Positions 4,319 through 23,048 of a stretch of 38,673 bases of DNA are shown here, one piece after another; position 1 is the first letter of the stretch; each line of letters opens with the position of its first letter. This DNA comes from Bacilli bacterium (GTDB taxonomy: Bacteria; Bacillota; Bacilli; Paenibacillales; DASWUO01): contig DASWUO010000059.1 of the NCBI GenBank assembly GCA_036401615.1, forward strand, positions 1 through 38,673, in the 5' to 3' direction. A program made the position numbers and the translations under genes. The notes beneath the pieces were generated by a model, which had not been told where the DNA came from, did no database searches, and worked only from the letters and a program-made list of their open reading frames with translations.

Positions 4319-5743
4319 ATGAAAATTCAATATAAGTTATGGCTGACTTTCACTTCTCTTTTTATCATCATGGGGTTGGCCTTATACCTCTTTATTGTCA
4401 ACGCTTATGAGAAGCGGGCCATTGCCGGACAAGCCGGAGTGATGGGCTCTCAGGGTGCGGCGGTTGTAGAGAAAATCAACGGAACTTACCCCAAATTTCC
4501 AGACAGGACCATGGGTTATTTGCAGTTTTACAGCAAGCAGCTGGATGCAAGGCTATTCCTTCTTGATGAAAAGAATGAAGTAGTTTTTGATACTTCCGGG
4601 CAGGTAAGTCAAGGAACATCTTTAAATTTATCGATTCTTGCCAAAGTAAAAGGACAACCGGTTTCGGAATTTATCAAAACGGGTCCCTTCGGATACGTTC
4701 AATATACTATGCTGCCTCTTCACCAAATTGTGAATGGTAAGATTCCGGACTCTAATAACAGCGCTCACGGGTATTTGTTAGTCGTAAAAGATATCAATGT
4801 GGTCTATGAAGATATTCATTCGTTTCAGCGTTGGATGTTAGGGTTGATGTTTGCTGCAGTTGTGTTATTCTTTATAGTTTGCTTTCCGGTCGCTTCATGG
4901 TTCACGAAACCCATTGCTGATTTGATTGACAATCTGCGGAAGATAAGTCCGCACAAGAGATCCTTTGCCATGAAGTACAAACGCAAGGATGAAATTAGAA
5001 AACTGGTTGATGCCATCACAGAGATGGTGGGCCAGTTGAATCACTATGAACAACGGCAGCGGCAATTCTTAAGCGCCTCCTCCCATGAATTAAAGACGCC
5101 TCTGGCTACCATTCAGTTAATTGTCGAAAACCTGAAGTTCGTCCAACATGATGATAGGTTGTTCAAGGAATTTACAGGTGATTTAAGCGGGCAGATTGAT
5201 AAAATGAAGCAGATGGTCGATCAGCTGCTCGACATCCACCGCGTATGGGATAAGCCTATTGAACGGGATTGGGTCTCCTTGGACGAAGCTGAGAAGCATA
5301 TCAAAGACCATTTTCTGCTGCTGGCAGAGCATAAGGAAATCCGGCTGGTTTTCCAAACCGATTCTGGCGCGGTATTCGTTGATCGTGATTTATTCTTTCG
5401 AGGTTTGGATAATCTGGTTTCCAACGCCGTACGTTACTCTCCCGAGGGCAGTGAGGTAATCATAAGCTTTAAAATGAAGGGCAAGGAACTGGTCCAATGT
5501 TCTGTGTGTGATCGAGGCATAGGAATAAGTAAAGAAGATCTGCTTAATGTGCTTGAACCTTTTTACAGGGCTAAAGATGCAACAGAGTGGAACCAGGAAG
5601 GGACGGGATTGGGTCTGACCATTGTTAAACAAATGGTGGATATTCACGGGGGTACGATGGAGATTAAATCACTTCCCGGTAAAGGAACTTGTGTGTTTCT
5701 TTACTTAAGTAACAAAAATGATACAAAAGGTTTATTGTCATGA
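4319..5743 (+). CDS. Sensor histidine kinase (2 TM, HAMP, HisKA, HATPase_c)
   Basis: H-box SASSHELKTPL, N box VSNAVRYSP, G boxes DRGIGI and GTGLGL. The ATG abuts the regulator stop (TAAATG). Confidence 0.9.
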   Translation: MKIQYKLWLTFTSLFIIMGLALYLFIVNAYEKRAIAGQAGVMGSQGAAVVEKINGTYPKFPDRTMGYLQFYSKQLDARLFLLDEKNEVVFDTSGQVSQGTSLNLSILAKVKGQPVSEFIKTGPFGYVQYTMLPLHQIVNGKIPDSNNSAHGYLLVVKDINVVYEDIHSFQRWMLGLMFAAVVLFFIVCFPVASWFTKPIADLIDNLRKISPHKRSFAMKYKRKDEIRKLVDAITEMVGQLNHYEQRQRQFLSASSHELKTPLATIQLIVENLKFVQHDDRLFKEFTGDLSGQIDKMKQMVDQLLDIHRVWDKPIERDWVSLDEAEKHIKDHFLLLAEHKEIRLVFQTDSGAVFVDRDLFFRGLDNLVSNAVRYSPEGSEVIISFKMKGKELVQCSVCDRGIGISKEDLLNVLEPFYRAKDATEWNQEGTGLGLTIVKQMVDIHGGTMEIKSLPGKGTCVFLYLSNKNDTKGLLS

Positions 5744-6432: not shown

Positions 6433-9400
6433 ACAGGCTCAATCTCCATCAACAAATCGCCGGATTCCACGGTGTTGTCTACTTTAACGTGAATCTCTTT
6501 GACGATGCCGTCAAATGGCGCCTGCATGGTCATTTCCATCTTCATCGCTTCATTGGCCAGAAGGTGATCGCCTCTCTTGATGTGATCGCCTTTTTTCACC
6601 ATGATCTTAAGCACCTTGCCTGGCATGGAGGCGCCGATGTGTCCCCGGTTATCCAGATCGGCCTTCAGCCTCTTTTCCATGGTGATTTTCGCCGAAGCGT
6701 CACGAATGACAATCTCACGGGGTTGGCCGTTCATCTCAAAATAAATCGTACGCATCCCATCCGGCTGGACTACTCCTACGGAAACGAGCTTGACCATCAG
6801 GGTCTTGCCCTGGGCAATTTCTATGGCAATTTCTTCCCCCAGCAGCATGCCATAGAAGAAGGTTGGTGTGTCCATCACGGATAAGTCGCCAAATTCCAAA
6901 GTTTTTATCAACATTTTCTTGTACACATCAGGGTACATGATATAGGACATCACATCATATTCCGTGAAGCTGCGTTCAAGCTCTTTCTCTAATTGGTTAC
7001 GAACTTCGTTTAAATCCACCGGCGTAAGCAGTTCTCCCGGCCTGCGGGTGAAGCTTTCGCCGCCTTTTAAGATAATCTGCTGCAATTTCTCCGGAAAGCC
7101 CCCGGGAGGCTGACCCAGGTATCCTTGAAACATCTGGATGACGGATTCCGGGAAATCCAAATTTTCTCCCCGGGCATACACGTCTTCTTCGGAGAGATTA
7201 TTTTGTACCATGAATAAAGCCATGTCCCCTACAACCTTAGAAGAAGGGGTTACTTTGACGATATCCCCAAACATCAGGTTTACCACCCGGTAAGTTTCCT
7301 TGACCTCTTCCCATCGATGGCCGAGCCCGACAGATTTGGCCTGCTGCTGTAAATTGCTGTACTGCCCGCCAGGCATTTCGTGAAGATAAATTTCCGGATT
7401 GCTCGATTTCATCCCTATTTCGAAGGAGGCATAATACGGTCGAATATCCTCCCAATAGTCGGATAACTTCTGGAATTGCCGGGGATCCAATCCTGAGGCA
7501 TACTCGTTATTTTCTAAAGCATAGATTAAGGAATTTAAATTCGGCTGGGATGTGAGCCCGGACATGGAACTCAACGCCGCATCAACAATATCCACGCCGG
7601 CTTCACAAGCTTTAATCAATAGAGCTCCGCCGTTTCCACTCGTATCATGGGTATGCAGATGGATGGGTATGCCGATTTCTTCCTTCAAAGCTTTGATCAA
7701 CACATAGCCGGCATAGGGTTTCAACAAGGAAGCCATATCCTTGATGGCCAGAATATGTGCGCCCGCTTTTTCCAGCTCCTTGGCTAGTTGTACGTAGTAT
7801 TTCAGATTATATTTGTCCCGCCCGGGATCAAGAATATCTCCTGTATAACAGATCGAGGCCTCCGCAATCTTGTCGGTTTCCCGCACGGCTTCAATGGCTA
7901 AGCGCATGCCGTCCATGCTGTTTAAGCTGTCAAATATACGGAATATATCCATACCCGCACCAGCTGACAATTGTACGAATTTTTTGATCACATTATCCGG
8001 ATAATTGCTGTAACCCACAGCGTTTGCACCGCGAAACAGCATTTGAAAGAGGATATTCGGGATCTTCTCGCGCAGCTTGATCAAACGCTCCCATGGATCT
8101 TCGTTCATAAACCGCATGGAGGTGTCGAAGGTTGCCCCACCCCACATTTCCAGTGAGAATAAATCGGCCCCAAGCTTGCCGGTTTCCTCGGCTATCTGAA
8201 GAAGGTCATAAGTGCGTACACGTGTGGCTAATAGAGATTGGTGCGCATCACGAAAAGTCGTATCGGTAATCAGCACTTTCTTCTGTTCTTTAATCCATTG
8301 AACAAGCCCTTCCGGCCCCCGTTGATCCAAGATTTGTTTCGTGCCCGAAGGATATGGCTGCGAAATCGAGGTTTTCGGAATACGTGTTTCCGTATAAGCC
8401 GGTTTCACTACATCCTGCAAAATGCCTGGGTGGCCGTTGATGATGGTTTGGCCGATGTATTTTAAAATTTTTGTGCCGCGGTCCTGCTTCTTGCTGAATT
8501 CAAATAATTCGTTTTTGGTATCTATAAAAGAGGTATCATAATTGCCGCTCAGAAAGTCCGGATGCTGCACTACATTTTCGAGGAAAGGGATGTTGGTTTT
8601 AACGCCGCGGATACGGAACTCCCGTAAGGTTCGCAGCATTTTGCTGGCAGCTTTGTCGAAGGAATGGGCATGTGTGGATACTTTAACAAGCAGGGAATCG
8701 TAGAAAGGGGTGATGGTCGCGCCCGGTGCGCCATTGCCCGCATCCAACCGCACTCCAAACCCTTCTGCTGTTCTGTAAGCCAGTAAACGGCCAATGTCCG
8801 GCAGGAAATTCTTTTCCGGATCCTCCGTAGTTACCCTGCATTGGATAGCAAAGCCTCTCATCTGCACGGATTCCTGAGATGGGATATTAATTTCATCATC
8901 TGCCAAGGCGTAACCTTCGGCGATACGAATTTGCGTTTGGACAATGTCGATACCGGTGACCAATTCAGTAATGGTATGTTCAACCTGGATACGGGGATTG
9001 ACTTCGATAAAATAAAACTGGCCGTCAGGCGTTACAAGAAACTCTATTGTACCTGCATTAATATAATTGGTGTTCTGAGCGAGCCTTAATGCTGCATTAC
9101 ATATCTCATTCCTCTGCTCTTCCGTTAAAGCAAGGCTTGGCGCAACTTCTACCACCTTCTGATGACGCCGCTGGATCGAGCAATCCCGTTCAAACAGATG
9201 CACGGCATTTCCGTGGCTGTCGGCTATGACTTGCACTTCAATATGTTTGGTGTTAATCAGGTATTTCTCTAAGTAAACTGCCGCGTTACCGAAGGAAGAC
9301 TTGGCCTCGGATCGAGCACTTTCAAGAGCTTGCTGAAGCTCATCCGCTTTATTAACAATCCTCATACCGCGCCCGCCGCCGCCGGATGCAGCCTTAATGA

Positions 9401-10003: not shown

Positions 10004-11044
10004 TCAACTAATTTCAAGATGCTGGGTTTGCACCGCCTCTAACCATTGTTCATATTTCTTCAAAGCCATTCCCTGCTCCAACGCATATTTGGCATGATAT
10101 ATCCCTTCTTCAACGGAGTCTACTTTTTCCGCAATCCATAGACGAAGGGCGCTGTTCAACAGCACCATATTGTGGTAATACATCTCGCTTTCACCTCTAA
10201 GCACCTTAAGCGCCGTTTGCGCCTGAAGAGCCGCTGTCCATTCCACCTCGGGCATTTCCGCTTGCAGTTCGAAAATTTCCGGATCTACGATGTAGAGTTC
10301 ACTTGCACCATCCCGTACAATGTAGGTTCTGGTTCTTTTATCAAGCGCCAGATCCTCAGACCCTTCTACCCCTTGTAAAATAATACCCCGCTTAATCCCG
10401 AGCTGTATGATGAGTTTAGACATCTTTTCGAACACGGTTCCATGAAATACGCCAACTGCCATATAAGGCGCTTCCGATAACCGCAGCAGCTTCTCAACGG
10501 TGTTAAACACGGTTCTGACCCCCAACTCCTGTCGAATTCCCCGAAGACCGCCTAATGGCGGACACCAATGTTCGGTTGATATGAATAATACACCGCCTTT
10601 TTCAGCTCCGGCAAGATGTGCATTTCTGGAATCGGCACCTGTGGAAACTCCAATTTCGTGTAACAAATCCGTTAAAGTAATCCCCATTTTTGGAGGAAGC
10701 GGAGCACTGCCATGCAGCGTTACAGGTAAACCGCAGGATGCCAGGACAAAAGCAGTCGGAAAAGTAGCGATGAATGAACGCTTGCGCCCGTCATAAGGGC
10801 CGGCACAATCAAATCCACCCTTTATAGGATGTACAGTACTTGTATTGCGGCAAACGTCAACAAAAGCTTGAATTTCTTCCGTAGATTCCATCTTGATTCT
10901 CTCAGCAATCAGGAACGCCCCGATCTGCGCCGGAGTAGCTTTGCCTGTGATAATCATCCCAGCTCCCATAACTGCTTCTTCATAAGTCAGGTCACGGGCG
11001 CCCTTCTTACCCCTTCCAACTTCCTTTAATAAGGAAAACATCAT
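10004..11044 (-). CDS. TrpD2 (YbiB-like) protein: AnPRT fold without the catalytic motifs
   Basis: 346 aa. The N-terminus LKEVGRGKKGARDLTYEEA resembles E. coli YbiB. The AnPRT motifs GTGGD and KHGNR are replaced by AGPYDG and LHGS. The ATG overlaps the upstream ANTAR stop (ATGA). Confidence 0.75.
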   Translation of the reverse strand: MMFSLLKEVGRGKKGARDLTYEEAVMGAGMIITGKATPAQIGAFLIAERIKMESTEEIQAFVDVCRNTSTVHPIKGGFDCAGPYDGRKRSFIATFPTAFVLASCGLPVTLHGSAPLPPKMGITLTDLLHEIGVSTGADSRNAHLAGAEKGGVLFISTEHWCPPLGGLRGIRQELGVRTVFNTVEKLLRLSEAPYMAVGVFHGTVFEKMSKLIIQLGIKRGIILQGVEGSEDLALDKRTRTYIVRDGASELYIVDPEIFELQAEMPEVEWTAALQAQTALKVLRGESEMYYHNMVLLNSALRLWIAEKVDSVEEGIYHAKYALEQGMALKKYEQWLEAVQTQHLEIS

Positions 11045-11661
11045 TTCTTTCGTCCCCCTCTTGTTTCTTCTTGAAGAAGTTGAAATACTTTCACAATCGA
11101 GGATGCTACATCGGACATTCTTTTTCTTTCATTCATAGCTTGTTTGCGCAAAAACTCATAGGCTTCCGCCTCAGAAATCTTCTTCATATCACATAGTATT
11201 TTCTTGGCTTGATCGATCCACTTGCGTTCTTCCAGTTTGGACAACAGCAGCTCTCTTTCCAGCTGCCACTGTGTGCGTTCCATATAGTGCTTGGAGCTTA
11301 GATGCAGCACCCAATTGATTTCTGCATCGTTCATTCCCATGCATAACATACCGTCCAAATCCAACTCAAGACTGCATTCACTGCTGCCTGAAGTAGATTC
11401 ATCAAACCACCACAGAAGAGGCAGGTTGCGCCAAGCCAGTATTTTTGTTCCCCACTTGATTAAATCAGGAATGGCCATTTGAAGAATAACGGCATCTATT
11501 GCCCGAAGGTTTTGTTTAACTTCTATTTCCGTATGCGCGTATATCACGCGGTAACCCATAAGCGCCAGTTTATGGGCAGGGCTTTTATGATCGGCTATGT
11601 TATTGTTTACAGGATCTTTTATAATTAAAAAAGATTGCAGCAATACTAACACTCCTTTCAT
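11041..11661 (-). CDS. ANTAR-domain RNA-binding antiterminator with pseudo-receiver N-terminal domain (AmiR/NasT-like)
   Basis: The C-terminus WIDQAKKILCDMKKISEAEAYEFLRKQAMNERKRMSDVASSIV is ANTAR. In the receiver-like half, Gln sits at the phospho-acceptor position (VILQMAIP). AAAGGAG lies just inside the track ORF, so TTG 11643 may be the true start. Confidence 0.85.
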   Translation of the reverse strand: MKGVLVLLQSFLIIKDPVNNNIADHKSPAHKLALMGYRVIYAHTEIEVKQNLRAIDAVILQMAIPDLIKWGTKILAWRNLPLLWWFDESTSGSSECSLELDLDGMLCMGMNDAEINWVLHLSSKHYMERTQWQLERELLLSKLEERKWIDQAKKILCDMKKISEAEAYEFLRKQAMNERKRMSDVASSIVKVFQLLQEETRGGRKK

Positions 11662-11792
11662 CTGTAAAGATCAACAGTTGTTCCACAAATATAACACAAT
11701 CATGAAAACTAATGTAACACATAAAACCATTAAAATTACTAATTACAGTTAAAAAAATTTATTATTGCTTTTTTTCATCTGGCACAACAAAG

Positions 11793-11844
11793 CCCGCATG
11801 CAATCCGACGTGCGCTTCTCTCGCAGACGTCGCTTGCATGCGGG
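11793..11844 (-). terminator. Long hairpin terminator after tatC
   Basis: CCCGCATGCAA...TTGCATGCGGG forms an 11-bp outer stem with an inner GACGT/ACGTC stem. On the minus strand it is followed by CUUUGUUGU. Confidence 0.55.
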
Positions 11845-11856
11845 AATTTACAATGA

Positions 11857-16054: not shown

Positions 16055-16234
16055 ACTTACCCCTCCTGTAAATTATTTAGCCTCTCGGCATTCGTTGAGC
16101 CAATACGGGACGAAGAATTCCTTGTACTGCTAAAATCATGTTGCGCAATTTCACAACTTCCGCTGCATTTTAATGTAAGCGCGCTTTCTGTATCCCCTCC
16201 TTATCCCGAGTGTAACTAGGCATTTTCATGTTAA

Positions 16235-16286
16235 TAAAGATAACACAAAAGGCCTATCCCTCTACATCGCTGTAGGGAGGATAGGC
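16235..16286 (-). terminator. Leader intrinsic terminator of the nrt-tat operon
   Basis: Minus-strand RNA GCCUAUCCUCCCUACA-gcga-UGUAGAGGGAUAGGC (about 15 bp with one bulge) followed by CUUUUGUGUUAUCUUUAUU. It lies about 285 nt upstream of the SBP start. Confidence 0.7.
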
Positions 16287-16325
16287 TTCATTGCCCTTAA
16301 GGAGTGACACATCATTGTGCTCCTT
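16283..16325 (-). promoter_or_regulatory. ANTAR-type dual hexaloop element (nrt leader)
   Basis: P1 is AAGGAGCAC[AAUGAU]GUG(uca)CUCCUU. P2 is GGGC[AAUGAA]GCCU. Both loops have A at position 1 and G at position 4. The P2 3' arm is the first 4 nt of the terminator 5' arm. Confidence 0.7.
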
Positions 16326-16337
16326 GTTGATATTGTT

Positions 16338-16366
16338 ATTATAAATGGCATTTTCGCATATGTCAA
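16338..16366 (-). promoter_or_regulatory. Sigma-A promoter of the nrt-tat operon
   Basis: On the minus strand: TTGACA (16366-16361), a 17-nt spacer, then TATAAT (16343-16338). Both hexamers match consensus. Confidence 0.7.
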
Positions 16367-16377
16367 TAAACATAACA
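16361..16377 (-). promoter_or_regulatory. TnrA/GlnR-type box overlapping the -35 of the nrt promoter
   Basis: The minus strand reads TGTTATGTTTATTGACA, which equals TGTNA-N7-TNACA exactly. Confidence 0.5.
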
Positions 16378-16433
16378 TTAAAATTTAAAATTCATTAATT
16401 ATGCGACCTTACTCGTCTTTTTTTCTCTTTATA

Positions 16434-16450
16434 TGTCATGTTTTCTTACA
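16434..16450. promoter_or_regulatory. TnrA/GlnR-type box
   Basis: TGTCATGTTTTCTTACA matches TGTNA-N7-TNACA. It sits inside the longer palindrome TATATGTCA...TTACATATA. Confidence 0.5.
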
Positions 16451-16541
16451 TATAAAGACTTCTGATCACCATTGGCGATAAAAAGTTACGCATCTTCTTC
16501 AGTTTTTGTATTTTACTCCAATGTCATCGATCAAAAGATTG

Positions 16542-16558
16542 TGTCAATATTAATAACA
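16542..16558. promoter_or_regulatory. TnrA/GlnR-type box
   Basis: TGTCAATATTAATAACA matches TGTNA-N7-TNACA. Confidence 0.5.
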
Positions 16559-16666: not shown

Positions 16667-16703
16667 TTAAACACAACGTTGTGTTTAATTGGCAATGAGG
16701 CCA
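16667..16703 (+). promoter_or_regulatory. ANTAR-type dual hexaloop element (nas leader)
   Basis: P1 is UUAAACAC[AACGUU]GUGUUUAA (8 bp). P2 is UGGC[AAUGAG]GCCA. Both loops are A1/G4. The P2 3' arm GCCA lies within the terminator 5' arm AGGCCAU. Confidence 0.7.
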
Positions 16704-16754
16704 TTTCGGGATCCATAAGGATCTTCAGATGGCCTTTTTATGTGTTTTATTTTT
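16698..16754 (+). terminator. Leader intrinsic terminator of the nas operon
   Basis: AGGCCAUUUCGGGAUCC-auaa-GGAUCUUCAGAUGGCCU pairs 17 positions with one C-C mismatch and three G-U wobbles. It is followed by UUUUAUGUGUUUUAUUUUU. Confidence 0.75.
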
Positions 16755-16788: not shown

Positions 16789-18027
16789 ATGGAAGAAAAA
16801 AGTTTTTTAAAAAGCGGCCACAAGCCATCATTGTTCAGTTCTTTTCTTTATTTCGACATCAGTTTTATGGTTTGGGTGCTAATGGGTCCACTGGCAGTTG
16901 TGATTATGAGCGATTTTCAAATGGATGCAGCGCAAAAAGCTAATTTAGTTGCTCTTCCAATTTTAGGCGGTTCCATTCTTCGATTGGTGCTTGGTTGGAT
17001 GACGGATTATATCGGTCCCAAAAAGACTGGACAAATTGGTTTAATTGTTACCATGATCCCTTTAGTAATGGCTTGGCAATTTGTGGAGACTTTAAGCGGA
17101 TTGTATATCACTGCATTATTGCTGGGTGTTGCCGGAGCGAGTTTCGCGGCTGCCTTGCCGCTGGCAAGCCGTTGGTATCCGCCGCAGCATCAGGGTTTGG
17201 CGATGGGCATAGCCGGAGCGGGAAACAGCGGCACGATTATTACTACGCTGTTCGCTAATCGAATTGCCCAGCATTATGGGGATTGGCATATAGTCTTTGG
17301 ATTCGCCCTGATTCCTGTGGTTCTGACCTTTATAGCTTTTACCTTATTGGCTAAGGATAGCCCGGATCAGCCTGCACCCAAGAAGTTTGCCGACTATGCC
17401 GTCGTTCTAAAACAAAAGGATACTTGGTTATTCTGTATGCTCTATAGTGTCACCTTCGGCGGATTTGTGGGGATGGCAAGTTATTTAACGATATTTTTTA
17501 ATACTCAATATGGCTTGGCTCCAATTGCTGCTGCAAATTTTACAACAATCTGCGTCATTGCGGGCAGTTTCTTCCGCCCGGTAGGCGGGTGGCTTTCCGA
17601 TAAAGTTGGCGGCATTCGGATGTTGACAATTCTTTATCTAGGCATTGCCCTGATGCTTGCCGGAGTTTCCACTTTGCCTGCGCTTGGACTTACTACTGCG
17701 ATGCTTTTTGTCGGGATGATGTGTATGGGGATGGGGAATGGCGCAGTATTCCAACTAGTACCGCAGCGGTTTAAGCAGGAAATTGGGATTATGACAGGAA
17801 TTGTTGGAGCGGCTGGAGGCCTTGGGGGATATTTCTTGCCTAAGATATTAGGAAACTTAAAGCTGTCCTCCGGTTCTTTCACTCCTGGGTTTCTGGTACT
17901 TAGTGTCATTGCCGTCAGCTGCATTGGGATCCTCCTTATTGCGCAAGGCCAATGGAAGAAAACCTGGATCGGCCAAGGCGGAAAAGCCAAGAAAGATGTG
18001 GTTGGGGCGCAAGTACAAGCCAGTTAG
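16789..18027 (+). CDS. nasA: MFS nitrate/nitrite transporter (NarK/NasA type)
   Basis: 12-TM MFS with NarK-like Gly-rich motifs (GGSILRLVLGWMTDYIGPKK, GIAGAGNSG). I moved the start to ATG 16789 (AAGGGAG 8 nt upstream) because the track ATG 16729 lies inside the terminator stem. Confidence 0.9.
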   Translation: MEEKSFLKSGHKPSLFSSFLYFDISFMVWVLMGPLAVVIMSDFQMDAAQKANLVALPILGGSILRLVLGWMTDYIGPKKTGQIGLIVTMIPLVMAWQFVETLSGLYITALLLGVAGASFAAALPLASRWYPPQHQGLAMGIAGAGNSGTIITTLFANRIAQHYGDWHIVFGFALIPVVLTFIAFTLLAKDSPDQPAPKKFADYAVVLKQKDTWLFCMLYSVTFGGFVGMASYLTIFFNTQYGLAPIAAANFTTICVIAGSFFRPVGGWLSDKVGGIRMLTILYLGIALMLAGVSTLPALGLTTAMLFVGMMCMGMGNGAVFQLVPQRFKQEIGIMTGIVGAAGGLGGYFLPKILGNLKLSSGSFTPGFLVLSVIAVSCIGILLIAQGQWKKTWIGQGGKAKKDVVGAQVQAS

Positions 18028-18052
18028 TAAATTAAAAGGAGCTGAAATCACC

Positions 18053-20473
18053 ATGGTACAGATGAAGAAGTTAGTTCTCATAGGAAACGGAATGGCAGGG
18101 GTCAACACAGTTGAACATATCTTGAAATTAGCGCCGAATAAATTTGATATTACGATTTTCGGTACTGAACCTCACCCCAATTACAACCGCATCCTGCTTT
18201 CCTACGTGCTTTCAGGCGATTCCAGTGTTAATGATATTGTTATCAACAGCTATGAATGGTATGAATCCAATGGAATTACCCTCTATACGGACCACACTGT
18301 AACTGAAATTAACACTGAGCAACAAACCGTTACCAGCAATCAAGGAGTTTGTGTTGCTTATGATCAACTTATTATCGCAACCGGGTCCAATCCCTTTATG
18401 CTTCCCCTGCCTGGTGCAGATAAAGAAGGCGTCATGGCTTACCGTACAATACAGGATTGCGAGAAGATGATTGAAGCCTCTAAAACATTAAAAAAAGCCA
18501 TTGTTATCGGCGGCGGTTTACTTGGTCTGGAAGCGGCAAGAGGCTTTCTGAATTTAGGCATGAAAGTCGATGTCGTGCATATTTGCGGCTCTATTATGGA
18601 ACGCCAACTGGATCCAACAGCCTCCAGCATGTTGCGTGAAGCTTTAGAGGCACAAGGAATGAACTTTTTGCTGGAAAAACAATCTGCAGAAATCATCGGA
18701 AACGAGCATGTCACCGGGCTTAAATTTAAAGACGGCACTAAAGCCGACGGCGATTTAATCGTTATGGCTGTTGGGATCAGACCAAATGTAGAGTTGGCTA
18801 AAAGAGCCGGTATTGAAGTCAATCCTGGAATTGTTGTCGATGACTATCTTCGAACCAATATTCCCAATGTATACGCAGTAGGTGAATGCGCCCAGCACCG
18901 CGGGATCGCATACGGCTTGGTAGCCCCTCTGTATGAGCAAGGTGCGGTTCTCGCTAAACATATTACTGAAGTAGAAACGGCACCGTATGAAGGATCCATT
19001 CTCTATACCAAACTTAAAGTATCCGGTGTAGATGTTTTCTCGGGCGGTCAATTTATGGAAAGCCCCGGAACCAAAGCCATTCGCATCCATGACGAATTTG
19101 CCGGAATTTATAAAAAAGTGCTGATCAAGGAAAATAAAATCATCGGGGCTGTTTTATTCGGAGACACTTCCGATGGAACCAGACTGATGCAGATGATTCG
19201 TAATCAAACGGATATCAGCGGCTATGATAAAACAGCCCTTCTTATTGAAACAGGAGGCAACACCAACGACTCCTCGAACGTTGCGGAAATGACGGATGAT
19301 AGCATTATTTGCGGCTGCAACGGCGTAAGCAAAGGTACCATTTGTTCAGCGATCAAAACCCAAGGTTTATCTACTGTAGAAGAAGTAAAGAATTGCACTA
19401 CAGCTTCACGCTCGTGCGGGGGCTGCAAGCCGCTCGTCAGTGATTTATTAGCTTATACACTTGGTGATCAATATGATAAAACGGCAGTGAAAGAATCAAT
19501 GTGTGGATGCACCACATTGTCCCGTGATGAAATTCTTGAGCAAATCCGTGAAAAAGAATTATTACACATTCGCGAAGTCATGAACGTACTTGAATGGAAG
19601 ACCGCGGAAGGCTGTTCCAAATGCAGACCTGCCCTTAATTACTACCTTGCCATGATCAATCCGACAGAATATGTGGATGACAGCACTTCCCGTTTTGTCA
19701 ACGAACGGATGCACGCTAATATTCAAAAAGATGGCACCTACTCTGTTATCCCGCGCATTTATGGCGGAGTGACCAACCCTGCCGAGCTTAAACGCATTGC
19801 TGAGGTGGCCGAGAAATTTAACATCCCTACAGTAAAATTTACAGGAGGCCAGCGTCTTGATCTGCTGGGTGTGAAGAAAGAAGATTTGACCCAAGTTTGG
19901 GAAGCACTTGATATGCCTTCCGGTTATGCTTATGGCAAAGCTTTACGAACGGTCAAAACATGTGTAGGCCAGGATTATTGCCGCTTTGGCACCGCAGATT
20001 CCATGGGTATGGGAATACGGATGGAAAAACGCTTTGAACGTTTAAACACACCCGCTAAAGTGAAGATGGCCGTATCCGGTTGTCCGCGAAATTGTGCAGA
20101 GTCCGGAATTAAGGATTTAGGAGTTGTTGCCATTGATGGCGGCTGGGAGCTCTATGCCGGCGGTAATGGAGGAGTAAAGATACGTGCAGGCGATCTCCTT
20201 GCAACTGTAAAAACGGAAGACGAGGTCATCGAATATACCGAGGCTTATTTACAATATTATCGAGAGACTGCCATTTATTTAGAAAGAACCTCAGATTGGG
20301 TAAAACGTGTTGGCATTCAACCTATCCGGGATGTTATCCTGGATGCTGAAAAACGGATTGGACTTTGTGATAGAATGAATACTGTCTTATCTGTAACAAC
20401 GGATCCTTGGAAAGAGGCAATTGATAACGAAAAAATTCAAAAAGACTTATACGAGGTTATTGAAATAAAATAG
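18053..20473 (+). CDS. nasD: Assimilatory NAD(P)H nitrite reductase large subunit
   Basis: FAD/NAD fold (KLVLIGNGMAG), two BFD-like 2Fe-2S modules (CGCNGVSKG..CGGC and CGCTTLSRD..CSKC), and siroheme/4Fe-4S cysteines (CVGQDYCRFG, SGCPRNCAES). Start set to ATG 18053 after the nasA stop, behind AAAGGAG. Confidence 0.93.
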   Translation: MVQMKKLVLIGNGMAGVNTVEHILKLAPNKFDITIFGTEPHPNYNRILLSYVLSGDSSVNDIVINSYEWYESNGITLYTDHTVTEINTEQQTVTSNQGVCVAYDQLIIATGSNPFMLPLPGADKEGVMAYRTIQDCEKMIEASKTLKKAIVIGGGLLGLEAARGFLNLGMKVDVVHICGSIMERQLDPTASSMLREALEAQGMNFLLEKQSAEIIGNEHVTGLKFKDGTKADGDLIVMAVGIRPNVELAKRAGIEVNPGIVVDDYLRTNIPNVYAVGECAQHRGIAYGLVAPLYEQGAVLAKHITEVETAPYEGSILYTKLKVSGVDVFSGGQFMESPGTKAIRIHDEFAGIYKKVLIKENKIIGAVLFGDTSDGTRLMQMIRNQTDISGYDKTALLIETGGNTNDSSNVAEMTDDSIICGCNGVSKGTICSAIKTQGLSTVEEVKNCTTASRSCGGCKPLVSDLLAYTLGDQYDKTAVKESMCGCTTLSRDEILEQIREKELLHIREVMNVLEWKTAEGCSKCRPALNYYLAMINPTEYVDDSTSRFVNERMHANIQKDGTYSVIPRIYGGVTNPAELKRIAEVAEKFNIPTVKFTGGQRLDLLGVKKEDLTQVWEALDMPSGYAYGKALRTVKTCVGQDYCRFGTADSMGMGIRMEKRFERLNTPAKVKMAVSGCPRNCAESGIKDLGVVAIDGGWELYAGGNGGVKIRAGDLLATVKTEDEVIEYTEAYLQYYRETAIYLERTSDWVKRVGIQPIRDVILDAEKRIGLCDRMNTVLSVTTDPWKEAIDNEKIQKDLYEVIEIK

Positions 20474-20516
20474 GTTGACTCGAGAACATATAAGGTAACG
20501 AAGGGAATGATCAGCC

Positions 20517-20861
20517 ATGAGTTTACAGACAGCGACTGCAATATGGGTAGAAGTTGCCTCCTACGATGAACTTCCTGTGAACACAGGTAAGACCGTGCGT
20601 TATCAGGGGCAAGAGGTGGCGTTATTCAAACTAAGCAACGGCAATCTCAAGGCGATTGAAAATCGATGTCCCCATAAGAATGGCGTCCTTGCTGAGGGGA
20701 TCGTATGCGATGACCATGTATTCTGCCCCATGCATGACCGCAAAATCCAACTTTCGACAGGGCTGGTACAAGCGCCTGATACGGGATGTGTAAAAACTTA
20801 TAATGTGACTGTAAAAGAGGGTAAAGTGTATATTGAATTTACAAAGGCGACTTTTTCATAA
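20517..20861 (+). CDS. nasE: Nitrite reductase small subunit (Rieske-like)
   Basis: 114 aa with CPHKNG...CPMHD Rieske-type ligands, immediately downstream of nasD. Confidence 0.9.
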   Translation: MSLQTATAIWVEVASYDELPVNTGKTVRYQGQEVALFKLSNGNLKAIENRCPHKNGVLAEGIVCDDHVFCPMHDRKIQLSTGLVQAPDTGCVKTYNVTVKEGKVYIEFTKATFS

Positions 20862-20876
20862 CTGGGGTGATTTGAA

Positions 20877-23048
20877 ATGACTACTATAAATTCGACAGCG
20901 TCCTTATCCCAAACTTTACTTCCAGCCTTATCTTCTATTAAAACATCCCATTGTTGTTTTTGCAGCATGCAGTGCGAAATACAATTAGAGCCGAGCGATA
21001 AGGAACCCGGGCTAGTTGTTAAACCAAGCCCGGATTTCCCTGTTGCTACAGGGCGGCTCTGTCAAAAAGGATTTAATGTTCTGGATCATGTGCTGCATCC
21101 TTCTCGAATAACCGTCCCCCTAAAGAGGAGAAATACTGAAACTGGAAGTGTTCCCAATGAGTTCGCTGAAAAATATAACCCTGCCGTGTGGCAGCAAAAC
21201 GATTGGAATACAACACTAACAGAAATTGCCTCGAAAATAAAAGCAATTCAAGCTGATCATGGGCATAATTCAGTTGCTGTATACGGCGGCGGTTCCGTAA
21301 CCAATGAAGTTTGTTATTTGCTCGGCAAATTTACAAGAGTTGCCCTCCGATCCAAATATATAGATTATAACGGGCGATTTTGTATGTCTTCTGCTGCTGC
21401 AGCCGCGAATAAGGCATTTGGCGCCGATCGCGGTATGACAATGCCATTATCGGAAATACCAAAAGCCAAGTATATCCTGCTGGCTGGAACTAATATTGCC
21501 GAATGCCAACCTACCCTAATGCCTTACCTAATGGAAGCTAAGAAAAGCGGGGCAACCATCGTTACGATAGATCCCCGCCATACGATGACCTCCAAACTTG
21601 CCGATATTCACGTCCGCCTTCAACCCGGCTTTGACTCTGTCTTTGTTAACGGCTTACTCCATGTGATCATATCGGAGAAGTTGTATAACTCACCTTATGT
21701 TGAATTGCACACAAATGGATTAACCCAACTGATGGAAGCTGTAAAATCTTTCACACCGGCTCGGGTTGAGGCCCTTACTGGTGTACTAGAAGCCGTTATC
21801 CGGACTATCGCCCGCGGTTTCGCAAATGCTGAAACAGGAATGGTTCTAACTGCCCGCGGCCTTGAGCAGCAAGTGAATGGTGTAGAAAACACACTAAATT
21901 ATATCAATCTGAGCTTGCTTACGGGCAAGATGGGTAAGCCCGGCTGCGGTTTTGGCTCCATTACGGGTCAAGCCAATGGCCAAGGAGGGCGGGAGCACGG
22001 GCAGAAGGCCGACCAACTCCCGGGTTACAGGCTTATAGAGGACCCGGCCGCTCGGGAGCACGTGGCTAAAGTCTGGGGTATCCACCCTGATGAACTCCCC
22101 GGGAAAGGTGTCTCTGCCTATGAAATGATTCAAAAAATAGATCAAGGTGAAATAAAGGCGATGATTGTCCTCGGATCCAATCCCGTCGTTTCCTGTCCAA
22201 ACAGTCATTTTGTTGAGCAAGCTTTAAAAAAGTTAGAGCTGTTGGTTGTGGTTGACTTATTCGAAACCGAAACTGCCGCCTATGCCCACTGGCTTCTTCC
22301 CGGCTCCTCCTTTCTTGAAGGCGAAGGCACACTGACGAATCTCGAAGGACGTGTATTTCATCGGCCTCAAGCGCTGGACTTACCCGGCGAAACCAAGCTT
22401 GATTATAAATTGATTTGTGAATTGGCTGAATACTTGGGTCGGGGGGATTTCTTCCAGTATAACTCCATTGAAGATGTATTTAATGAACTTACGGCTGCTA
22501 CTGCCGGAGGCATTGCAGATTACAGCGGCATCACTTATCAGCGATTAATAGAAGAAAAGGGCGTATTCTGGCCCTGTCCTTCTGAAAACCACCCGGGTAC
22601 CCCTACCATGTTCATTCATGGTTTTTACCACCCCGATGGGAAAGCAAAGCTATTTGGTATAGAGCCCCAGATGCCCGCTGAACCGATTGACCGGGAATAT
22701 CCTTATATTCTTACTACTGGTCGGGTGGCTAATCATTATCTAAGCGGAGTCCAAACACGGCGTTCCCCGGGGTTAAATAAGAAAGCTCCGGTCCCTGTTG
22801 CCGAAATCCACCCATGGTTAGCCAAGAAGATTGGCCTCGGCATAGAAAGCAAGATTCGCATCACCAGCCGGCGCGGCTCTCTTATTGTTCAAGCAAAGAT
22901 TTCAGAATCCATCCAACCCCAAACCGTATTTGTCCCCTTTCACTGGGGAGGGGAATTGTCGATTAACCGCCTCACCAATGATGCCCTTGATCCCACCAGC
23001 CGGATGCCGGAATTTAAGATTTGTGCCGTACAGATCGAGTCCACTTAA
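20877..23048 (+). CDS. nasC: Assimilatory nitrate reductase catalytic subunit (molybdopterin oxidoreductase)
   Basis: N-terminal 4Fe-4S motif HCCFCSMQC...RLCQKG, a MopB core and a C-terminal molybdopterin dinucleotide-binding barrel. No signal or Tat motif, so it is cytoplasmic. Confidence 0.9.
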   Translation: MTTINSTASLSQTLLPALSSIKTSHCCFCSMQCEIQLEPSDKEPGLVVKPSPDFPVATGRLCQKGFNVLDHVLHPSRITVPLKRRNTETGSVPNEFAEKYNPAVWQQNDWNTTLTEIASKIKAIQADHGHNSVAVYGGGSVTNEVCYLLGKFTRVALRSKYIDYNGRFCMSSAAAAANKAFGADRGMTMPLSEIPKAKYILLAGTNIAECQPTLMPYLMEAKKSGATIVTIDPRHTMTSKLADIHVRLQPGFDSVFVNGLLHVIISEKLYNSPYVELHTNGLTQLMEAVKSFTPARVEALTGVLEAVIRTIARGFANAETGMVLTARGLEQQVNGVENTLNYINLSLLTGKMGKPGCGFGSITGQANGQGGREHGQKADQLPGYRLIEDPAAREHVAKVWGIHPDELPGKGVSAYEMIQKIDQGEIKAMIVLGSNPVVSCPNSHFVEQALKKLELLVVVDLFETETAAYAHWLLPGSSFLEGEGTLTNLEGRVFHRPQALDLPGETKLDYKLICELAEYLGRGDFFQYNSIEDVFNELTAATAGGIADYSGITYQRLIEEKGVFWPCPSENHPGTPTMFIHGFYHPDGKAKLFGIEPQMPAEPIDREYPYILTTGRVANHYLSGVQTRRSPGLNKKAPVPVAEIHPWLAKKIGLGIESKIRITSRRGSLIVQAKISESIQPQTVFVPFHWGGELSINRLTNDALDPTSRMPEFKICAVQIEST

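Follow-up and report, generated by a model that had tools for sequence, protein, structure and literature searches.

AmiC-AmiR (PDB 1qo0) and NasS-NasT are partner-controlled ANTAR regulators, and serve here as the analogy for a gene pair located in a 38,673-nt stretch of a Bacilli bacterium (contig DASWUO010000059.1 of a metagenome-assembled genome; the whole stretch is called the window). The pair contains a gene encoding an ANTAR antiterminator and a gene encoding a protein with the fold of TrpD, the anthranilate phosphoribosyltransferase (AnPRT). The latter is named TrpDL, a name used here for the nas-associated, GTGGD-less TrpD paralogue. Like NasS-NasT (Paracoccus, Azotobacter, Pseudomonas; PMC3795266) and AmiC-AmiR (Pseudomonas aeruginosa), the pair shows a receiver-like ANTAR antiterminator with no cognate kinase, a co-transcribed adjacent partner gene, and dual-hairpin attenuators in the leaders of nitrogen-assimilation operons, and its regulator-then-partner gene order is that of nasT-nasS. 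The periplasmic-binding-protein partner of the known systems is absent: in NasS and AmiC the partner has that fold, whereas TrpDL has the TrpD (phosphoribosyltransferase III) fold. The ANTAR N-domain, unlike that of NasT and AmiR, belongs to a distinct Trp-/Cys-rich subfamily unrecognised by Pfam Response_reg. EutV and Rv1626 (PdtaR) show the same architecture as the window ANTAR protein, are among its best structural matches and have the same hexaloop type of target, but they carry an acceptor Asp and have cognate kinases (EutW and PdtaS), whereas the window protein has Gln and no kinase. We give an even chance to the reading that the two overlapping genes form a kinase-independent switch of two proteins for nitrate/nitrite assimilation, of which we infer the contact, the ligand and the sign of regulation. 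The genes and their junction are the following:

11041..11661, minus strand: ANTAR antiterminator gene, an open reading frame (ORF) of 206 aa with a pseudo-receiver N-domain, a coiled-coil helix and the ANTAR three-helix domain
10004..11044, minus strand: TrpDL gene, an ORF of 346 aa with the TrpD fold, whose phosphoribosyl pyrophosphate (PRPP) motifs are gone
11039..11044, minus strand: stop/start overlap ATGATG, where the TGA of the ANTAR gene overlaps the ATG of TrpDL

The two ORFs overlap by 4 nt (plus strand tcat, minus strand ATGA), and the sequence agrees with the overlap at 11041-11044 given in an earlier note on this DNA. A second ATG at 11041-11039 makes the overlap either 4 nt or 1 nt. 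The TrpDL start shows a strong Shine-Dalgarno sequence, AGAGGGGGA, about 9 nt upstream, within the end of the ANTAR gene. Since the TGA of the ANTAR gene overlaps the ATG of TrpDL, translational coupling is indicated. The ANTAR gene probably starts at the TTG at 11643, which would give a protein of 200 aa, because AAAGGAG is located 7 nt upstream and the closest homologues have 200 aa.

The ANTAR protein shows the Pfam ANTAR domain (PF03861) at residues 141-190, with 62.5 bits against a cutoff of 27.3, and no Pfam match to Response_reg (PF00072). Its AlphaFold model, with a mean confidence (pLDDT) of 89.5, contains a (beta-alpha)5-like domain, a long helix at residues 112-160 and the three-helix ANTAR domain. 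The receiver fold is recognisable in the model, with beta1 to beta5 and helices, but a loop is found in place of alpha-4. Among PDB structures the protein comes closest in fold to EutV, Rv1626 and AmiR, and the receivers of KdpE and FixJ also match. Beta-3 comprises residues 57-61 and ends at Q61, the acceptor position, where the protein shows AIDAVILQMAIPD; the Gln that the earlier note had placed at the phospho-acceptor site is therefore correct, and across 78 family members this position is occupied by S, H, C or Q, never by D. The Lys of beta-5 is also missing across the 78 members, with G, T or S at its position, followed by Pro. As judged from these sequences and the model, Asp phosphorylation of the receiver-like domain is impossible. 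The absence of an adjacent kinase is likewise confirmed: the sole histidine kinase of the window (4319-5743) comes after its own OmpR-type regulator. A histidine-kinase-like ORF is located within 4 kb in only two of the 160 loci studied, which comprise the 80 best genome loci and 80 metagenome loci, all reached via the TrpD-like protein.

Residues P81, W84, W85, C86, C96, D103 and H116 are conserved in the family of this ANTAR protein. The Trp-/Cys-rich stretch that contains them (residues 81-116) lies at the expected alpha-4 site, is modelled at a lower pLDDT of about 72, and could be a loop that binds a partner or a metal. The window protein shows F86 where the family has a near-invariant C86, and a [4Fe-4S] or other metal site common to both proteins was rejected as a general feature on that account.

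TrpDL shows the Pfam domains Glycos_trans_3N (PF02885) and Glycos_transf_3 (PF00591), and its model (pLDDT 94.2) matches TrpD structures with TM scores of 0.82-0.86. Its best PDB sequence match is the TrpD 9ucw, with 138 bits. Like TrpD it has the two-domain fold, the R..LG.RT.FN segment and, at the Mg site, an acidic pair. In TrpD, the Arg of the R..LG.RT.FN segment binds the carboxylate of anthranilate. TrpDL keeps this Arg and also the acidic pair, as ED instead of DE. However, the alignment to 9ucw shows that, unlike in TrpD, the PRPP-binding motifs are replaced: GTGGD by GPYDG (GPYDGR), KHGN by LHGS, and the Ser-rich pyrophosphate loop (SSKSGSAD in 9ucw) by PPKMGITLTD, with LPPK. Pfam and this alignment thus agree with the earlier note, which had described an AnPRT fold with GTGGD and KHGN replaced and no trp genes nearby; TrpDL, unlike TrpD, has no trp operon context, and no trp gene is found in the window or in the 160 loci.

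All the NCBIfam scores of TrpDL are below the family cutoffs: 183 against 287 for PRK07394, which is the best, 146 against 199 for TrpD (TIGR01245) and 103 against 185 for YbiB (NF006005). With its motifs replaced and its score under the TIGR01245 cutoff, TrpDL does not belong to the AnPRT family, and the label 'anthranilate phosphoribosyltransferase' on proteins of this type is a mis-annotation in hundreds of genomes. The 103 TrpDL sequences show 39 invariant columns, including Y84, R87, H111, K119, R168, R171, R177, E184, K185, H201, Q224, E227 and D231, which speaks for a specific pocket and against an enzyme in decay. Among the 1.84 billion representatives searched, TrpDL falls within a large GTGGD-less radiation, whose proteins outscore true TrpDs against the TrpDL family profile. 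No ANTAR-TrpDL fusion is found among the 240 listed homologues or the 150 representatives, and the long ORFs in L140 and L157 that resembled fusions are start-codon artefacts; the sole genuine fusion seen joins a TrpD-like protein to SirC (P0332, below).

The designation 'TrpD2 (YbiB-like)' used by the earlier note holds for the N-terminus (LLKEVGRGKKGARDL in TrpDL, IIKEIGRGKNHARDL in E. coli YbiB), for several other motifs and for the basic residues, but not for family membership, since TrpDL fails the YbiB cutoff. TrpDL shows 29% identity to E. coli YbiB over 266 aa (E = 9e-19; hhalign probability 99%) and 61 bits to the PDB YbiB 4muo, against 138 bits to 9ucw. Both proteins are GTGGD-less and share KE[VI]GRGK..ARDL, P.Y[DN]G, CPPL and G[VL]R..(F/H).T..KL. 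R87/K88 and K119 of TrpDL align with R92 and R123 of YbiB, which bind an acidic partner (PMC10123104). Unlike YbiB, TrpDL has the additional invariant LPPK, EGSED and NT.EKL and is more acidic. The TrpDL family has a median pI of 5.4 and a net charge of -8, and E. coli YbiB, which was expected to be basic, has a pI of 6.4 and a net charge of -2.6; overall charge was thus rejected as a discriminator, being a weak one. The setting of TrpDL is nas/ANTAR, in contrast to the DNA-repair (LexA/dinG) setting of YbiB, and no dinG context is found in the 160 loci.

In the 160 loci, of which the metagenome part comes from a scan seeded with distant TrpDL relatives, an ANTAR gene is located directly upstream of TrpDL, on the same strand, in 118: 77 of the 80 best genome loci and 41 of the 80 metagenome loci. 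These 118 loci are called linked and the other 42 unlinked. The gap between the two genes ranges from -8 to +41 nt. The ATGA overlap is present in 44 of the 77 genome loci, and the genome pairs without it show gaps of 6-41 nt and a Shine-Dalgarno sequence at the stop. The pair is found in Paenibacillus, Cohnella, Chengkuizengella, Brevibacillus, Melghirimyces, Paludifilum, Evansella, Alkalihalobacillus, Aquibacillus and Halalkalibacter, and across the paired genera the identity drops to about 53% for TrpDL and about 43% for the ANTAR protein. The earlier note had held that its proposal would fall if the adjacency were confined to close relatives; it reaches across all the genera named. In the opposite direction, both of two ANTAR homologues chosen without reference to TrpDL adjoin a TrpD-like gene. 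A divergent nas gene is located within 1 kb in 104 of the 109 linked loci with enough flank: nirB in 52, narK in 50 and nrtA in two. In the linked clade TrpDL is never inside a structural operon, and is coupled to the regulator instead. From gene order and sequence, ANTAR-TrpDL appears to be a conserved regulatory pair that many soil Bacilli carry next to their genes for nitrate assimilation, and no earlier description of it was found; no ANTAR partner with the TrpD fold was found in the literature searched, as the earlier note had supposed.

Two loci, L046 (labelled Candidatus Bathyarchaeia) and L072 (labelled Candidatus Udaeobacter), contain Brevibacillus- or Paenibacillus-type ANTAR-TrpDL-nas loci. 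They are nearly syntenic with L045 and L069 and are probably mis-binned contigs.

The putative RNA targets of the ANTAR protein, located by our own pattern scans, and the operons behind them, defined by ORFs and Pfam, are the following:

16667..16741, plus strand: ANTAR target of the narK leader, with hairpin P1 at 16667-16688 (loop AACGUU) and hairpin P2 at 16690-16703 (loop AAUGAG)
16697-16736 and the U-run, plus strand: terminator of the narK leader; the 3' half of P2 sits in the terminator stem
16246..16325, minus strand: ANTAR target of the nrtA leader, with P1 at 16299-16325 (loop AAUGAU) and P2 at 16283-16296 (loop AAUGAA)
16252-16286 and the U-run, minus strand: terminator of the nrtA leader, which overlaps P2
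11857..15950, minus strand: target operon 1, nrtA, nrtB, nrtD, tatA and tatC
16789..23048, plus strand: target operon 2, narK (MFS), nirB, nirD and nasC (molybdopterin nitrate reductase)

In both leaders P2 is a GGC[AAYGNN]GCC hairpin with its 3' half inside the stem of the intrinsic terminator. The full narK leader folds at -33 kcal/mol (z = -5.6) into the terminator, and the truncated leader into the P1 and P2 hexaloops; the full nrtA leader also folds into the terminator (z = -3.8), and its truncated form into two hexaloop hairpins. Each leader thus shows two hexaloop hairpins with A at position 1 and G at position 4 of the loop, the second of which overlaps the terminator, and both match the ANTAR recognition element set out for EutV, NasR and AmiR (PMC3369931). 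The element is present in 96 of the 118 linked loci and in one of the 42 unlinked loci (stringent pattern), and its matches cluster in the divergent nas leader, no more than 400 nt upstream of the ANTAR gene; the co-occurrence with nas genes and dual-hexaloop leaders that the earlier note had proposed to score is found. An Rfam scan of 9.8-17 kb gave no ANTAR-target family, its single match being a chance snoRNA. A third match to the dual-hairpin pattern (9050-9102, minus strand) is inside the pyruvate carboxylase gene and is most likely due to chance.

Many narK leaders of Paenibacillus show two P2 elements (GGCAAYGNNGCC) about 100 nt apart; these include L001, L003, L004, L007, L010 and others, at about 8960-9130 of the minus strand. 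The paired elements suggest tandem attenuators.

In the proposed mechanism, the ANTAR protein would bind the hexaloop hairpin pair of each leader, narK and nrtA, and block the overlapping terminators. Because its pseudo-receiver is not phosphorylatable, the protein needs another input, which TrpDL, made in fixed ratio with it through translational coupling, might supply. TrpDL has lost the PRPP site and keeps, at the domain hinge, the Arg for the anthranilate carboxylate, the acidic pair and the invariant Arg, Lys, His and Tyr residues, and this hinge pocket may bind an anionic signal of the pathway. Binding of the ligand would alter the hold of the TrpDL dimer on the pseudo-receiver and so set the dimerisation of the ANTAR protein on RNA. 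Nitrate or nitrite would be the most likely signal, with a siroheme-type tetrapyrrole as the alternative; the first two are the most economical ligands, because both are carboxylate-like in shape and the Arg of the R..LG.RT.FN segment is retained. The control might be by sequestration, as with NasS and AmiC, or by activation, as the phenotype of the cyanobacterial protein CnaT suggests, and general nitrogen control would act separately, via TnrA/GlnR-type promoter boxes. On sequence and analogy, the reading of the pair as an ANTAR system under the control of a partner whose fold is new to such systems stands evenly balanced.

For Gram-positive nitrate assimilators, Paenibacillus and Brevibacillus among them, we know of no established mechanism of nitrate and nitrite sensing. 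B. subtilis is known to have only general nitrogen control, by TnrA. The ANTAR-TrpDL pair is a concrete and genetically tractable candidate for a pathway-specific nitrate/nitrite switch and, if the reading is true, would be the first physiological role assigned to the many proteins that every database calls 'anthranilate phosphoribosyltransferase'. It would also tie YbiB-like proteins to the binding of an anionic ligand or partner rather than to catalysis.

CnaT is reportedly a protein of about 356 aa, glycosyl-transferase-like, whose gene is located just downstream of ntcB and is constitutively expressed. By description CnaT is like TrpDL: both are TrpD-related, of about 350 aa and encoded beside a gene for a regulator of nitrate assimilation, and CnaT is needed for nir expression. 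Its neighbour regulator is a LysR-type DNA-binding protein, whereas that of TrpDL is the RNA-binding ANTAR protein. TrpDL shows this type of setting, beside a pathway-specific regulator in the 118 linked loci and near nas genes in nearly all of those with enough flank. According to the passage of PMC9430850 that cites Frias, Herrero and Flores 2003, cnaT (all0601) is a positive regulatory element for expression of the nirA operon in Nostoc PCC 7120. The main text of PMC9430850 places cnaT near cynS, in the genomic region that bears the nitrate cluster of Synechococcus WH7803, and its supplement annotates SynWH7803_2497, beside cynH, as 'anthranilate phosphoribosyltransferase related protein'; we infer that this gene is cnaT. 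No cyanobacterial sequence appeared in the homology search, in the NCBIfam scans of TrpDL relatives or among the plasmids. PRK07394, whose cutoff (287) is reached by none of 38 diverse TrpDL relatives, is possibly the CnaT family. By this likeness of description, CnaT is likely a precedent for the pairing of TrpDL with a regulator. If CnaT is homologous to TrpDL, the pairing of a regulator with a TrpD-like protein has a precedent from 2003 with a DNA-binding partner, and the ANTAR protein is the new variant; as CnaT is known as a factor for nir expression, the claim of novelty for ANTAR-TrpDL is weakened. The reading of TrpDL as a regulator's partner may explain the requirement for CnaT in cyanobacteria, unexplained for 20 years.

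Several results weigh against TrpDL acting as the partner of the ANTAR protein. Eleven loci encode a TrpDL 48-64% identical to the window protein with no ANTAR gene seen upstream of it (one of them, L105, being too short to judge); Brevibacillus thermoruber L040 is an example of this linked-type TrpDL. In more distant relatives, with 35-44% identity to the window protein, the signature motifs persist without an upstream ANTAR gene, and the ANTAR RNA motif is found at none of their loci listed below, nas and siroheme operons included. The linked and unlinked clades have 48 conserved TrpDL positions in common, with identical pocket residues, and the positions specific to the linked clade are only 11, mostly buried-type hydrophobics that form no clear interface patch. 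A mirror-tree analysis gave no specific signal: with NirB taken into account, the ANTAR N-domain shows a partial correlation of 0.27 with TrpDL, equal to that with NirD (0.27). As the same 48 residues are kept without an ANTAR protein, the core activity of TrpDL cannot be 'binding ANTAR', and TrpDL has an ANTAR-independent role. The ligand of TrpDL is a guess. The earlier note's proposal of the TrpD2-like protein as the ANTAR partner sensor therefore keeps the support of the pairing, the nas linkage, the RNA leaders and the lack of a kinase, and is opposed by this conservation in ANTAR-less relatives, which show the following settings:

L130 and L139: nirB-nirD-TrpDL-nasC, without an ANTAR gene
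L151, L152 and L154: narK-TrpDL-nasC or narK-nasC-TrpDL, without an ANTAR gene
L123 and Neobacillus niacini L169: nirB-nirD-cobA-TrpDL, with a 17-nt overlap with cobA in L123
L109 and L143: nirB-nirD-(nirC)-cobA-sirB-TrpDL, without an ANTAR gene
L097 (5965-11347): TrpDL beside urease genes, the ureA-like sequence being judged by eye
L162/L163 (3273-11249): TrpDL in a puc (purine-catabolism) region (PucR, M20, XDH) beside an endonuclease I gene; L162 belongs to the Bacillus licheniformis group

The settings of L097 and L162/L163 are nitrogen loci of the TnrA-regulon type. The arrangement narK-TrpDL-nasC is located between obg and pheB-hom in L151 (3156-9164) and L155 (4326-9231). YbiB, the E. 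coli relative of TrpDL, binds ObgE (PMC10123104), and the adjacency of TrpDL to obg is striking in this respect, but may be a coincidence.

Homologues are also found beyond nitrogen loci. In Nitrospirae L164 (GCA_016194305.1, 5468-10229) a TrpD-like gene is located between genes for a NIR_SIR/TusA sulfite reductase and ATP sulfurylase, with genes for an AprA-like flavoprotein and a ferredoxin upstream, and in Myxococcota L166 the homologue adjoins hemE and a hemY-like gene. SirC is the precorrin-2 dehydrogenase of siroheme synthesis. P0332 and P0511 (666 and 668 aa; Logan assemblies) show a GTGGD-less TrpD-like protein fused to SirC, whose part contains NAD_binding_7 and Sirohm_synth_M. These fusions are a Rosetta-stone link of the TrpD-like superfamily to siroheme synthesis, and no report of such a link, including the SirC fusion, was found in the literature searched. 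The ANTAR-less relatives in nas, siroheme and sulfite settings show that the tie to nitrite/sulfite assimilation is older and wider than the tie to ANTAR, which suggests that the whole TrpD-paralogue family serves nitrite and sulfite assimilation. We advance only tentatively the extension that the GTGGD-less TrpD paralogues are one sensor family for siroheme-dependent nitrogen and sulfur assimilation, comprising the ANTAR-coupled clade, the clade of nirBD/nasC/siroheme operons, the Nitrospirae proteins linked to sulfite reductase, the fusion with SirC and, probably, CnaT. In such a family the old anthranilate/PRPP pocket would bind nitrite, nitrate or a siroheme-type tetrapyrrole, and the signal would pass to the regulator of each lineage, ANTAR in Bacilli and the LysR-type NtcB in cyanobacteria; if true, the family would be PII-like, but for oxidised nitrogen.

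The same settings feed the alternative that survives best, which we hold to be possible but rather unlikely. TrpDL would be an accessory factor of siroheme-dependent nitrite/sulfite reductases that carries, inserts or monitors siroheme or its precursors; it would be co-transcribed with the regulator in the linked clade only, and the ANTAR protein would be controlled by a ligand of its own N-domain or by an unlinked partner. The ANTAR-less TrpDL genes in the nirBD-cobA (L169, L123) and nirBD-(nirC)-cobA-sirB (L109, L143) operons speak for it, as do the sulfite reductase/ATP sulfurylase setting of L164, the hemE/hemY-like setting of L166, both SirC fusions and the pocket residues common to linked and unlinked clades, and an octacarboxylate tetrapyrrole would fit well with so many conserved Arg and Lys. 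However, siroheme genes flank only four of the 42 unlinked loci, and in the linked clade TrpDL always goes with the regulator and stands apart from the structural operons, which are under attenuator control. The nasDEF operons of the B. subtilis type function without a TrpDL gene. The phenotype reported for CnaT (cited in PMC9430850) is the loss of nir expression and not of enzyme activity alone.

An active transferase or phosphorylase, which makes or destroys an effector or modifies the regulator and whose product controls the ANTAR protein here and NtcB in cyanobacteria, is improbable. The conservation of TrpDL is indeed typical of enzymes (Y84, D85, R87, H111, K119, R177, N181, E184, K185, H201, Q224, E227, S229, E230 and D231), the Mg-binding acidic pair (ED) and the RT.FN Arg of TrpD are kept, and CnaT was reportedly described as glycosyl-transferase-like (Frias et al. 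2003). But TrpDL has other residues in place of the GTGGD 5-phosphate loop, of KHGN and of the Ser loop for pyrophosphate, the gene context yields no candidate substrate, and TrpD2/YbiB shows neither TrpD nor nucleoside phosphorylase activity (PMC10123104, PMC9835598).

YbiB also binds DNA and RNA non-specifically (PMC10123104), and with the YbiB motifs common to TrpDL and the basic residues at the R92/R123 positions this raises the option that TrpDL is a YbiB-like nucleic-acid binder acting with the ANTAR protein as a co-antiterminator on the leader RNA. We regard it as quite improbable, given that TrpDL scores under the YbiB cutoff, that its family is acidic, that ANTAR-less homologues occur without the ANTAR RNA motif and that EutV ANTAR dimers suffice for RNA binding (PMC3369931). 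A genuine trpD with incidental adjacency, in line with the automatic NCBI and JGI names and the TrpD fold, is barely credible with GTGGD and KHGN absent, a score below the TIGR01245 cutoff, no trp context and ANTAR/nas linkage in 118 loci.

Other features belong to the regions around the pair and its putative targets:

16229..16558, no strand assigned: four TGTNAN7TNACA boxes (TnrA/GlnR-type), at 16229, 16361, 16434 and 16542, in the divergent nrtA/narK promoter region
11662..11856, minus strand: intergenic region with the tatC terminator hairpin (about 11793-11848) and the A/T-rich promoter region of the ANTAR-TrpDL operon

The window contains six matches to TGTNAN7TNACA against 0.44 expected, four of them in the nrtA/narK promoter region, and we take these boxes, from the known Bacillus consensus, to be candidate boxes of TnrA/GlnR. 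Together with the leaders they suggest two-tier control, in which nitrogen limitation acts at initiation through a TnrA/GlnR-type regulator and the ANTAR protein at elongation. A stringent motif scan found no ANTAR RNA motif in the intergenic region 11662..11856, and the promoter region that the ANTAR-TrpDL pair has to itself contains no attenuator, as is usual for regulator genes.

The nrtA-nrtB-nrtD-tatA-tatC genes are located upstream of the pair on the same strand, and narK-nirB-nirD-nasC is divergent from this block; narK probably starts at the ATG at 16789 rather than at 16729. The product of nrtA is an NMT1_2 binding protein with a twin-arginine signal and a lipobox (MRDKITRREFLKK...LSAC), and because of this Tat signal and lipobox the only NrtA-like protein of the window is a transport protein. 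An NrtA-like gene is absent from most loci. The nrtABD-tatAC block also adjoins the pair in the Halalkalibacter loci L064 and L066 (4917-8924), and the dedicated tatA-tatC pair at the end of the nrtABD operon seems to travel with the Tat-exported nitrate-binding lipoprotein. Directly 3' of nasC, on the same strand, a gene of the guanylate-kinase family (PF00625; 23126-23704) is located, which is an unusual cargo for a nas operon.

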